Part shown: in pieces, positions 5,219 through 36,194 of the stretch
Position numbering within the stretch: the stretch's first letter is position 1
How the letters are laid out: every line of letters starts with the position of its first letter
Virus record (IMG/VR): IMGVR_UViG_2728369181_000006
Location: 1 to 44,578 of that record
Reading direction: 5' to 3' (one strand)
DNA: 44,578 nucleotides
Source: a virus
Taxonomy: Duplodnaviria > Heunggongvirae > Uroviricota > Caudoviricetes
The notes under the pieces: model-generated
What the model was told of the DNA's origin: nothing
Databases searched by the model: none
What the model saw: the letters and a program-made list of their open reading frames with translations, nothing else
Position numbers and translations under genes: made by a program

Positions 5219-5290
5219 TCAATATTTCCTAATCCGATTTGTTGATACCGAAGCCCTGACTGTTCCCGCAGTTGGGGCTTCACTGTTTTG
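5219..5290 (+). ncRNA. sar: Candidate Sar-like antisense RNA covering the ant ribosome-binding region
   Basis: Plus-strand hairpin (gaagccc...gggcttc, about 5250-5282) followed by a T-rich tract, about 70 nt downstream of a weak promoter-like -10 tatact at 5206-5211. Geometry matches P22 sar, which is antisense to the ant RBS. Confidence 0.3.
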
Positions 5291-31522: not shown

Positions 31523-31732
<210 letters not shown>

Positions 31733-31820: not shown

Positions 31821-32537
<717 letters not shown>

Positions 32538-33473: not shown

Positions 33474-33536
33474 AACCATCTGCGGTGATAAATTATCTCT
33501 GGCGGTGTTGACACATATACCACTAGCGGTGATACT
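33474..33536 (+). promoter_or_regulatory. OL: Left operator OL3-OL2-OL1 with promoter pL
   Basis: Sites aaccatctgcggtgata (33474-33490), tatctctggcggtgttg (33494-33510), taccactagcggtgata (33518-33534); -35 TTGACA 33508-33513 and -10 GATACT 33531-33536 with 17-bp spacer. Confidence 0.85.
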
Positions 33537-33581
33537 AAACACATCAGCAGGAAGCTGGAAGCCAAACGGAACAGATTGGCA

Positions 33582-33616
33582 GGCTCTTTAACTTCGATGG
33601 GGCGCTGACAAAGCGC
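33582..33616 (+). promoter_or_regulatory. nutL: nutL (boxA plus boxB hairpin gcgct-GACAA-agcgc)
   Basis: boxA-like ggctctttaac followed by a 5-bp stem with GACAA pentaloop, the P22-type boxB, matching the P22-type N downstream. Confidence 0.6.
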
Positions 33617-33735
33617 AAACAGATACCAAACGAGATGGGTTTGGCGGTGATGTGAATTGCAGCTGCAACGACAGCAACCAGAAGATCAGCATCTGGCGCA
33701 TCACCACCAAAGCCATTTCACATGAGGAAAACATC

Positions 33736-34077
33736 ATGACGGTAATCGTGTACGGAAAATCAACATTTGTAGGAAATGCCAAAACTCGCCGTCATGAGCG
33801 GCGCAGAAAGCTGGCTATCGAGCGTGATGCTATCTGTAACATCATTGATTCTATCTTCGGCACAGACAGTGAGGAACCTGTTCAGGAAGCCCCAAGAAAG
33901 CGTTTAAGCCTTTCTGAAAAAGCAATATCACTCGGAAGCCTTCGCTGCAAGAAGTCAAAGTCAGAAGAAGTCGAGCGTAAACAGAACCGTATTTACTACC
34001 GCAAGCCACGCAGTGAAATGGGTGTGACTTGTGTTGGTCGCCAGAAAATGAAATTAGGCAGCAAACCACTTATTTGA
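33736..34077 (+). CDS. N: Antiterminator N (P22 gene 24-type), 113 aa
   Basis: Arginine-rich motif GNAKTRRHERRRKLAIER at the N-terminus; C-terminus GVTCVGRQKMKLGSKPLI similar to lambda N; GAGGAA RBS; start at internal ATG 33736. Confidence 0.8.
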   Translation: MTVIVYGKSTFVGNAKTRRHERRRKLAIERDAICNIIDSIFGTDSEEPVQEAPRKRLSLSEKAISLGSLRCKKSKSEEVERKQNRIYYRKPRSEMGVTCVGRQKMKLGSKPLI

Positions 34078-34088
34078 GAGGAATTAAT

Positions 34089-34712
34089 ATGTCATCAATC
34101 CGCTTAACTACGAGAATGAAAGAGAAAATCGCTCGTAACGCTTTAATTAAGTCTGGGGTTTTCACTGAGCTTGAAGAAGTAACAAAGTTAAAGAACCAGC
34201 TTGCACTTGACGCCAGAGTTATTGCGTTTGGCGGTAAAAAGAAAACTGAGGAAGTGGATCAGTTATCATCCAAGTTGGTAGCTATAAGTGAAGAACTTGG
34301 AAAGATGGGATGTTCATTTTACTCATACGATTTTCGTTCTACTTCAATTTATCTGACTGTATCTGGCAGAAGGGTTGGATGGCATTCATATGAGAAAGAC
34401 GGCAACGGCGAAGATATATTTCTCCCTACTCCGATAAAAGATAAATGCATGTTTGACGCAGAGCACGAAATAACAAAAAGGTTTGATGAAATCTGCTCAT
34501 TACAACAAAAACTTGAAGCCAAGAAAAAGGATATCGAATCAAATGTATGGGCTGCTTTAAACTCAGTCACAACAGTTAAGCGACTTATTGAGGTTTGGCC
34601 TGAAAGCAAAGAGTTGCTACCAAAAGAAGCAGATAAAGCAAGTACAGCACTTCCTGCTTTACGGGTAGAAGATTTGAATAAGATGATTGGACTTCCTTCC
34701 GAGGCCGCATAG
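34089..34712 (+). CDS. Hypothetical early protein, 207 aa
   Basis: ATG 34089 with GAGAGGAA RBS directly after N; no recognisable family. Confidence 0.5.
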   Translation: MSSIRLTTRMKEKIARNALIKSGVFTELEEVTKLKNQLALDARVIAFGGKKKTEEVDQLSSKLVAISEELGKMGCSFYSYDFRSTSIYLTVSGRRVGWHSYEKDGNGEDIFLPTPIKDKCMFDAEHEITKRFDEICSLQQKLEAKKKDIESNVWAALNSVTTVKRLIEVWPESKELLPKEADKASTALPALRVEDLNKMIGLPSEAA

Positions 34713-34749
34713 TCGGCCTTTATTTTTGGCATAAACAACAGAGGCTAAC

Positions 34750-35046
34750 ATGGAATTTAAAGGTACTGAAGGTAAGTGGGAAATAATGATGGATGGCGAT
34801 GAGATTAAAATCATCCAGGCAGACTCACTTGAAAATGGCGCAGGCTGGCGTTCGTATATTGCAATCTGTGAGGAAGTTAAATGTATTGAAGATGCCAATC
34901 TAATAGCGGCAGCACCTGACCTTCTCGAAGCACTTCAGTTATTACTTAAGCAATCCAAAAATAGAACAACGACAACATATCCAGAATGGTATGGAGCTGT
35001 TAATAAAGGTCTTGCAGCAATCAGAAAAGCTCTTGGGGATAAGTAA
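34750..35046 (+). CDS. Hypothetical early protein, 98 aa
   Basis: ATG with AGAGG RBS. Confidence 0.45.
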   Translation: MEFKGTEGKWEIMMDGDEIKIIQADSLENGAGWRSYIAICEEVKCIEDANLIAAAPDLLEALQLLLKQSKNRTTTTYPEWYGAVNKGLAAIRKALGDK

Positions 35047-35234
35047 TGAAAGTAAAAATAACTGCTTCTAATACCAGTTTTGTTAGTGTTGGTGATATTA
35101 CAGAAGTAATAACAAACCATGATGGAACCCAAGTTATGTGGTCTGATTTTTGTAAAAGATATGAGCGAGTTAGTTGGTGTAAAAACGTATGGGGAGTCGA
35201 ATACGAAGAATTACCTGAAATGCATGACGAATAA
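35046..35234 (+). CDS. Hypothetical early protein, 62 aa
   Basis: TAATG overlap with upstream gene. Confidence 0.4.
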   Translation: MKVKITASNTSFVSVGDITEVITNHDGTQVMWSDFCKRYERVSWCKNVWGVEYEELPEMHDE

Positions 35235-35328
35235 GCACTGTGTATTCATCCAACGAGTGAATACACGGAGCAATGTCGCTCGTAACTAAACAGGAGCCGA
35301 CTTGTTCTGATTATTGGAAATCTTCTTT

Positions 35329-35355
35329 GCCCTCCAGTGTGAGGGCGATTTTTTA
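35329..35355 (+). terminator. Rho-independent terminator within the early-left operon
   Basis: gccctc-cagtgt-gagggc followed by gattttttat. Confidence 0.55.
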
Positions 35356-35374
35356 TCTGTGAGGATATGAACAG

Positions 35375-35743
35375 ATGTCAAACATCAAAAAATACATCAT
35401 TGATTACGACTGGAAAGCATCAATAGAAATTGAAATCGACCATGACGTAATGACAGAGGAAAAACTTCACCAGATTAATAATTTCTGGTCAGACTCTGAA
35501 TACCGACTCAATAAACACGGCGCTGTATTAAATGCTGTATTAATCATGCTGGCGCAACATGCTCTGCTTATAGCAATTTCGCAAGACTTAAATGCATATG
35601 GTGTTGTTTGTGAGTTCGACTGGGATGATGGAAATGGTCAGGAAGGATGGCCTCCAATGGATGGTAGTGAAGGAATAAGAATTACCGATATCGATACATC
35701 AGGAATATTTGATTCAGATGATATGACTATCAAAGCCGCCTGA
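35375..35743 (+). CDS. Hypothetical early protein with acidic C-terminal region, 122 aa
   Basis: ATG with GAGGA RBS; C-terminus rich in D/E/G. Confidence 0.45.
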   Translation: MSNIKKYIIDYDWKASIEIEIDHDVMTEEKLHQINNFWSDSEYRLNKHGAVLNAVLIMLAQHALLIAISQDLNAYGVVCEFDWDDGNGQEGWPPMDGSEGIRITDIDTSGIFDSDDMTIKAA

Positions 35744-35818
35744 GCGCGGCTTTACCGCATACCAATAATGCTTCACGAGAGGCATTTTCGTTATGCAATC
35801 AAATATAAGGAGTTACCC

Positions 35819-35953
35819 ATGATGCACTTTCAGCTCGCGGGTAGCGGCGTCATGTCCGCTTTCTACCCGCACGAATCTGAATTATCACGCCGAGTTAAAC
35901 AATTAATCAGAGCAGCAAAGAAACAACTGGAGGCGTTATGCGCAATGAAATAG
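35819..35953 (+). CDS. cIII: CIII-like small protein (putative FtsH inhibitor), 44 aa
   Basis: MMHFQLAGSGVM...HESELSRRVKQLIRAAKKQL resembles the lambda CIII amphipathic core; AAGGAG RBS; directly upstream of and overlapping the kil-like gene as in lambda. Confidence 0.35.
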   Translation: MMHFQLAGSGVMSAFYPHESELSRRVKQLIRAAKKQLEALCAMK

Positions 35954-36090
35954 CCATTAATCACCAGATGCTTCGTGCTGCACAGAACAAAGCAGTAATA
36001 GCCCGATTTATTGGTGATTCAAAAATGTGGCTTGAAGCAAATAAAGCGATGAAATCAGCTATCAACCTTCCGTGGTATCGCAGGAAATGA
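35938..36090 (+). CDS. kil: Kil-like small protein, 50 aa
   Basis: …AVIARFIGDSKMWLEANKAM… resembles lambda Kil (…IATFIGDEKMFREA…) as recalled; overlaps the cIII-like stop. Confidence 0.35.
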   Translation: MRNEIAINHQMLRAAQNKAVIARFIGDSKMWLEANKAMKSAINLPWYRRK

Positions 36091-36194
36091 GTTTTACAGA
36101 TAACTGGTCAGACGAAGAATTCATTCGTCAGATGAACAAAATGCTCAATCAGCACAAAGAACAGGAGAAAGATGATGATTCTGACTCTGAATGA
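36087..36194 (+). CDS. Small acidic ORF, 35 aa
   Basis: ATGA overlap with kil-like stop. Confidence 0.25.
   Translation: MSFTDNWSDEEFIRQMNKMLNQHKEQEKDDDSDSE

Follow-up and report, generated by a model that had tools for sequence, protein, structure and literature searches.

Here we have analysed a short interval on the + strand of a phage genome, positions 35238 to 35355, and we read it, with a probability of about 85%, as the phage's own copy of the lambda small-RNA gene PreS (LPR1) together with a hairpin that bounds it upstream. The window throughout is the whole 44,578-nt stretch that was analysed (IMG/VR record IMGVR_UViG_2728369181_000006). The original prediction had described the interval as a strong hairpin plus an intrinsic terminator, possible processing or regulatory sites that partition an N-dependent early-left operon, and the finding corrects the annotation. 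The feature is already known, with the exception of the upstream hairpin.

Both structures are present as drawn. At the core of the hairpin is a perfect 9-bp inverted repeat (GTGTATTCA at 35240-35248 and TGAATACAC at 35258-35266, with 9 nt between the arms) that is followed by no T-run, as had been stated. Folded as RNA, the full element (35238..35268, +), which we list as the hp1 allele of the upstream hairpin, has 12 pairs (35238-35249 with 35257-35268), two of them G.U, around a 7-nt loop at -14.5 kcal/mol. The terminator scan also recovers the canonical terminator 60 nt past the hairpin, with a stem at 35327-35348 (8 pairs, 5 of them G-C, and a 6-nt loop) and TTTTTT at 35349-35354. A search for perfect 9-bp inverted repeats that allowed loops of 3-12 nt gave 10 matches in the window (8 places) against 2.3 +/- 2.2 in dinucleotide shuffles of it; with about two per shuffle, a single such repeat is therefore unremarkable alone. 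The background of the terminator scan is likewise high (27 terminator-like sites in the window, 13.3 +/- 3.8 in shuffles), and the 151-nt region holding both structures folds with z = -3.45. What raises the hairpin and the terminator above chance is conservation together with published function.

The 88 nt at 35268..35355 (+) correspond to the complement of 34011..33924 in lambda J02459 and are identical to it at 88 of 88 positions, where the preprint describing the RNA asks for at least 92% identity. Lambda homology begins at 35235, the exact match to J02459 spans 35249-35521, and 35235-35380 is matched by 327 phage records, mostly at 95-99% identity (lambda itself, 99.3%). In lambda, the sRNA LPR1, since renamed PreS, is encoded between ral and ea10 and ends 3' at tL2a; it shows strong enrichment on Hfq and gives a band of ~88 nt plus a stronger, processed form of ~68 nt. 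Lysogens lack it, and it is made in lytic growth only, where it can be seen within 10 min of induction (Silverman et al., bioRxiv 2024, doi 10.1101/2024.10.31.621285). We set the ends of PreS on the window with the preprint's primers for cloning, deletion and in-vitro transcription (P810, P968/P969 and P1103/P1104), which put the 5' end for cloning and in-vitro transcription at G35268 (GAGCAATGTCGC...), the 3' end of the in-vitro template at A35355 and the full PreS deletion at 35268-35354, all on the + strand. Folding predicts a 5' stem-loop at 35275..35301 (+; GUCGCUC / GAGCCGAC), and from the published sizes the ~68-nt form would start near 35287-35288, in the A/U-rich loop of this stem-loop.

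From its sequence, the element at 35327..35354 (+; stem-loop 35327-35348, T6 35349-35354) has the GC-rich hairpin and directly following U-run of an intrinsic terminator, and the record of phage O276 (MH547045) labels the identical stem-loop 'Transcription terminator tL2a'. By coordinate transfer the T-run corresponds to lambda 33930-33925, in agreement with both MH547045 and the preprint. Rfam 15, searched over 35000-35600, returned no family at its gathering threshold and none that could be assigned at E up to 10, the best score being that of RyhB (18.3 bits, where 55 are required), which rests on the terminator only; PreS is absent from Rfam 15, and a literature search for an earlier name of PreS in EHEC prophages found nothing. 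Judged by sequence, the window copy is PreS/LPR1 in every respect that we tried. This changes how the proposed partition of the operon by the two sites is to be seen. The hairpin may well be processing-related, as had been suggested, because its end is exactly the reported 5' end of the sRNA; the terminator, on the other hand, is probably less a partition of the operon than the 3' end and Hfq-binding module of an sRNA, since the 60-nt spacer and the terminator together make up the PreS gene.

The part of PreS that pairs with its targets is found intact in the window. The seed, as placed by the preprint's primers and the dnaN duplex, covers 35302..35329 (+), and the primer sequences P838/839, P888/889 and P970/971 locate on the + strand the published seed deletion (35303-35319), the mutation M1 affecting dnaN pairing (CTG, 35307-35309) and the mutation M2 affecting alaS pairing (GAA, 35317-35319). 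Against the E. coli K-12 MG1655 dnaN leader (positions -48..-16, taken from the dnaA-dnaN junction), the seed forms a duplex of -28.3 kcal/mol that none of 1000 shuffled seeds equalled; it includes two perfectly paired stretches, one of 12 nt (35318-35329) and one of 11 nt (35303-35313, which holds the CTG of M1). It was the seed-only run that gave this signal; full-length PreS against dnaN, at -46.6 kcal/mol, did no better than shuffles. We also considered that trimming to 68 nt might free the seed and rejected this, as the unpaired probability of block 1 rises only from 0.37 to 0.46, a change that is too small.

In lambda, the seed sits in an unpaired region, and PreS acts on dnaN, whose ribosome-binding site it opens so that translation rises, and on alaS, which it represses, with compensatory mutations confirming both effects; spontaneous phage production falls 2-fold in the seed deletion and 4-fold in the full deletion in an Hfq-dependent manner, phage DNA is reduced in the seed mutant, and plaques are also reduced in the deletions (Silverman et al., 2024). 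PreS function in general rests on this one preprint, and by sequence identity it probably carries over to the window copy. During lytic growth, the N-antiterminated pL transcript would traverse the 35268-35355 region, and an 88-nt RNA with its end at tL2a would accumulate from it and then be trimmed to ~68 nt. Hfq would bind PreS through the terminator hairpin and U-tail, and the single-stranded seed (35302-35329) would pair with the host dnaN leader and open its ribosome-binding site, so that more beta clamp could support phage DNA replication; PreS would also repress alaS. N-modified RNA polymerase should pass tL2a, which counts against a U-tailed 3' end forming there.

The operon context is that of a lambdoid early-left operon. 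A pL-type promoter within lambda-like OL operators (TTGACA-17-GATACT, 33508..33536, +; promoter scan and sequence) lies 1.7 kb upstream of the PreS locus and is presumably the source of the transcript that bears it. It is followed on the same strand by a nutL site, read from the sequence, with boxA GCTCTTTAAC at 33583-33592 and a boxB hairpin GCGCTGACAAAGCGC at 33602-33616, which we take to be of the P22 type, and by an N-like antiterminator gene at 33736..34077 (PF25694 N_peptide, E = 1.5e-25; phrog_271). With pL, nutL and N all upstream on the + strand, the label of an N-dependent early-left operon was right. A lambda-like cro (31523-31723, -) and a lambda-like cI (31824-32537) also lie upstream. 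Directly after N, in the position of the lambda ral/sieB region of the pL operon, is a gene for an Nmad5 protein (nucleotide-modification-associated domain 5, PF18757; ORF finder and Pfam, 34029-34712, +), whose listed ORF starts at TTG and overlaps N, so that the true start may be further downstream. There follow a terminator-like hairpin (34701-34720, +; terminator scan), a 98-aa ORF (phrog_1273; 34750-35046, +) and a 62-aa ORF (phrog_10407; 35046..35234, +), both with no Pfam match, the latter ending in a TAA stop (35232-35234) with 3 nt between it and the hairpin.

The next gene after PreS, as in lambda, is ea10 (DUF2528; 35375..35743, +), which starts 20 nt past PreS on the sense strand, and past ea10 are cIII, kil and a RecT recombinase. 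The cIII leader holds a second conserved hairpin plus TTTTCGTT, at 35767-35792 (+), which by coordinate transfer is lambda 33512-33487, a site that we take to be tL2b. The genome is strongly mosaic: a sar RNA, the P22 immI antisense RNA, is found far away at 5219-5284 (+; RF00262, 63.7 bits), and this and the P22-like nutL/N stand alongside lambda-like cI, cro and OL/pL.

Comparison of PreS loci places the hairpin firmly beside the sRNA. Our set comprised 117 IMG/VR loci with the seed 27-mer and a further 66 with a pattern requiring non-hp1 sequence before PreS, and hairpins were counted over the 181 loci whose sequence extended 60 nt or more upstream and 110 nt or more downstream. In 180 of these a hairpin stands immediately 5' of AGCAATG, and the single exception is the IS903-interrupted copy of O276/HK022. 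Exactly two alleles occur among the 181. The first, hp1, is CUGUGUAUUCAUUC-CAAC-GAGUGAAUACACGG, with 14 bp at -18.8 kcal/mol; the second, hp2, is UAUAGCAGAUU-UACG/UGCG/CACG-AGUCUGCUAUG, with 11 bp at about -14.5 kcal/mol. Eight of 11 positions of the 3' arm differ between them, with the 5' arm changed to match, and both keep a common register of ACGAG, then 11 nt, then AGCAATG. The alleles were folded separately because MAFFT aligned hp2 out of register with hp1. The window's own hairpin is without one loop T that is present in all other copies seen, and has a stem of 12 instead of 14 bp. Among single-site variants, those of loci L083, L119, L061 and L147 are wobble-compatible or better paired and those of L027, L063 and L174 are mismatched, and the few variants in the PreS body (such as G35275A and C35297T) are not compensatory. 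Neither hp1 nor hp2 was found in IMG/VR without PreS following. One viral contig (L176, IMGVR_UViG_2681813004_000020) has two identical hp2-PreS cassettes 2.2 kb apart, at offsets 1157 and 3398 of its - strand.

Outside this unit the flanks diverge. Homology among the phages stops precisely where the hairpin begins on its 5' side, and again at the T-run of tL2a. We clustered the flanking sequences of the 174 loci that also had 80 nt to either side of the module, and obtained about 17 clusters upstream and 9 downstream, in 44 combinations, around a PreS body that is 93-100% identical to that of the window. Many unrelated upstream ORFs end in GAATAA right before GCACTGTG (AACAGAATAAACACTGCACTG in the lambda type). 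The window has an insertion of two ORFs (about 34744-35234) that parts the PreS hairpin from a terminator-like element at 34701-34729, which in mEpX1-type phages is only ~25 nt upstream of the hairpin, and the insertion junctions have the GAATAA motif in common. On the other side, ea10 is missing in many phages, and the T-run of tL2a there joins the cIII leader directly. The alignments thus present the hairpin and PreS as a self-contained cassette of about 120 nt between mosaic flanks, which recurs with hardly any change in hundreds of lambdoid, Stx-converting and P22-like phages. Exact seed matches also turned up in assemblies of Pseudoxanthomonas, Shewanella, Pseudomonas, the Bacillus group, Kitasatospora, Bradyrhizobium and others (L185-L205), and these are almost certainly lambda DNA contamination, several of them on low-coverage contigs of ~48.4-48.5 kb. 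The genuine hosts seen in the contig scan were Escherichia and Shimwellia, so the host range is not widened.

A mosaic junction that coincides with the 5' boundary of the hairpin, around a common GAATAA motif, could also be expected if the hairpin acted at the DNA level, either as a palindrome bound by a protein or as a recombination 'linker' that favours mosaic exchange at the edge of the module, and the insertion of IS903 inside the hairpin in HK022/O276 would fit as well. We nonetheless regard such an element as very unlikely. Two alleles with unrelated arms are hard to reconcile with a binding site that is read by sequence; the linkage of the hairpin to PreS is strict, and its register relative to the 5' end of the sRNA does not change; and the non-Watson-Crick pairs are all G.U on the transcribed strand, where they would be A.C on the other. 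That all wobbles are G.U on the + strand points to sense RNA and not to DNA. The loop of hp2, moreover, is of the UNCG type, a stabilising motif specific to RNA. These features suggest that the hairpin is selected as a structure in the sense-strand RNA.

Another account of the interval is that of plain punctuation, in which tL2a is an operon-internal terminator that, with an incidental hairpin, limits N-independent transcription of the distal pL operon, and nothing between the two is functional. Roughly two 9-bp inverted repeats per window are expected by chance, and tL2a is classically one of the lambda left-operon tL2 termination sites, as far as the preprint relays earlier work on it and the O276 record annotates it (Silverman et al., 2024; MH547045). 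This account is nevertheless highly improbable, as it leaves unexplained a 60-nt spacer conserved at 93-100% in ~180 loci with mosaic flanks, the complementarity of that spacer to the dnaN leader far above chance, and a hairpin whose structure outlasts a complete change of stem sequence, and it conflicts with the lambda experiments, in which the sRNA is bound by Hfq, its targets are validated and its loss has phenotypes (doi 10.1101/2024.10.31.621285).

Taking the interval as PreS with its boundary hairpin, we turn to how the 5' end of the sRNA arises. G35268 is both the last paired base of the hairpin and the +1 of PreS in the preprint. The text of the preprint is silent on the hairpin and on promoter versus processing, and it holds no nucleotide-resolution mapping of the 5' end (Silverman et al., 2024); for this reason, the coincidence of hairpin base and '+1' could partly reflect a boundary drawn by its authors. 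That silence leaves room for PreS to be a primary transcript, started at a promoter of its own; the hairpin, overlapped by that promoter, would then be a feature of DNA or promoter context, or a leftover terminator for transcription arriving from upstream. Many Hfq sRNAs are primary transcripts, and the cassette is autonomous across many genomic contexts. At its threshold, however, our scan gave no promoter-like site anywhere from 33536 to 36093 on the + strand, and no pair of -35/-10 hexamers at a sigma-70 spacing of 16-18 bp was found upstream of +1. The would-be -10 falls in the 3' arm, where 8 of 11 positions differ between the alleles (TGAATACACGG against TCTGCTATGTG, neither resembling TATAAT), the would-be -35 region upstream of the hairpin is unrelated among contexts, and the timing of expression in lambda, within 10 minutes post induction and none in lysogens, fits a pL product. 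A promoter of its own is thus unlikely for PreS. Because no promoter-like site is seen, and because the would-be -10 lies in an allele-variable arm, we favour processing over initiation as the probable origin of the PreS 5' end, and we infer that the hairpin is a boundary or processing element at the RNA level.

In the processing model that we propose, the hairpin would most likely stay on the upstream mRNA once PreS is released from the operon transcript, where it would cap and stabilise the 3' end of the upstream fragment. It would also insulate the fold of PreS from the variable genes upstream, perhaps position the cut, and act with PreS as a portable cassette in mosaic lambdoid genomes. 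Going a step further, it is possible, though we hold this tentatively and at less than even odds, that the hairpin is a sequence-independent structural signal that directs the 5' cut of PreS and then serves as a protective 3' cap for the RNA upstream. If true, this would provide for clean excision of an Hfq sRNA from an antiterminated transcript, whatever genes recombination sets beside it. As for the nuclease, the stems (12 bp in the window, 14 in hp1 and 11 in hp2) are shorter than the ~20 bp, or two helical turns, of a canonical E. coli RNase III substrate, the junction ACACG|GAGCAAUG is unlike the usual A/U-rich RNase E site, and a literature search for sites of processing, by RNase III or otherwise, in the ral-ea10 interval found nothing. 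In phage O276 (L003, MH547045, 1517-2440), and also in HK022, an IS903 lies inside the 5' arm of the hairpin with PreS intact; these copies are a natural hairpin knockout that could be used to probe the role of the hairpin. The conserved, sequence-swappable hairpin abutting the 5' end of PreS offers a handle on how that end forms in an N-antiterminated transcript.

The same stretch could in principle encode a small protein. A 29-aa ORF at 35273-35362 (MSLVTKQEPTCSDYWKSSLPSSVRAIFYL) starts with ATG in 178 of 179 copies, has GGAG just upstream and stays open through the terminator in all contexts, and ribosomes translating through the terminator might tune read-through in the manner of attenuators or dual-function RNAs. 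We give this the poorest odds of the readings weighed here. The GGAG, half of which is taken up in the hairpin, leaves only 2 nt before the ATG and reads UGAG in hp2; one copy has an ATA start; codon 22, in the terminator loop, varies non-synonymously (S, N, D, K, Y, G, R, E); and the C-terminus runs from 23 to >60 aa with the length of the T-run and the downstream context. We have rejected the ORF because the variation follows RNA structure and not the reading frame, and because its C-terminus is not conserved.

The closest known system is lambda PreS/LPR1 itself, with the same 88 nt, strand, position in the pL operon, tL2a terminator, dnaN seed and downstream ea10. The window phage is a different mosaic, however, with P22-type nutL/N, a sar RNA elsewhere in the genome and RecT in place of Bet/Exo; the gene upstream of PreS is the 62-aa ORF here and ral in lambda, and the loop of the window's upstream hairpin is 1 nt shorter. 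LPR2 has been proposed as a sponge of PreS (doi 10.1101/2024.10.31.621285), and when we searched the window, allowing up to 3 mismatches, with the preprint's northern-probe sequences for LPR2 and for the lambda 6S RNA, neither was matched. Should the two RNAs be truly absent, PreS has been kept here without those proposed partners. The terminator is identical in sequence to lambda tL2a, of the tL2 cluster of the leftward operon, whose classical description is that of a termination site only.

Beyond lambda, PreS may be likened in its mode of working to DicF. This Hfq-dependent sRNA lies between protein genes in the repressor-controlled dicB operon of the Qin (Kim) prophage, is freed from the operon transcript by processing, and ends at an intrinsic terminator. 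DicF differs from PreS in that the two have no sequence or Rfam match and that DicF targets ftsZ and others, and we know of no equivalent conserved hairpin abutting the 5' end of DicF. For the hairpin, the role suggested here resembles that of the RNase III sites of the T7 early mRNA, which are cut 3' of a hairpin so that the stem-loop stays upstream as a 3' protective cap; in both, the downstream RNA starts just past the hairpin, although the T7 sites have stems of ~20 bp with internal loops and the stem of the PreS hairpin has 11-14 bp. For the sRNA, the nearest general type is that of the processed, operon- or 3'UTR-derived Hfq sRNAs such as CpxQ, SroC and s-SodF. Like them, PreS has its terminator in common with an mRNA, is probably cut out endonucleolytically and is abundant in a shorter form; unlike them, with their place at the end of an operon, it lies in the middle of one that is antiterminated, and the genes continue past its terminator.
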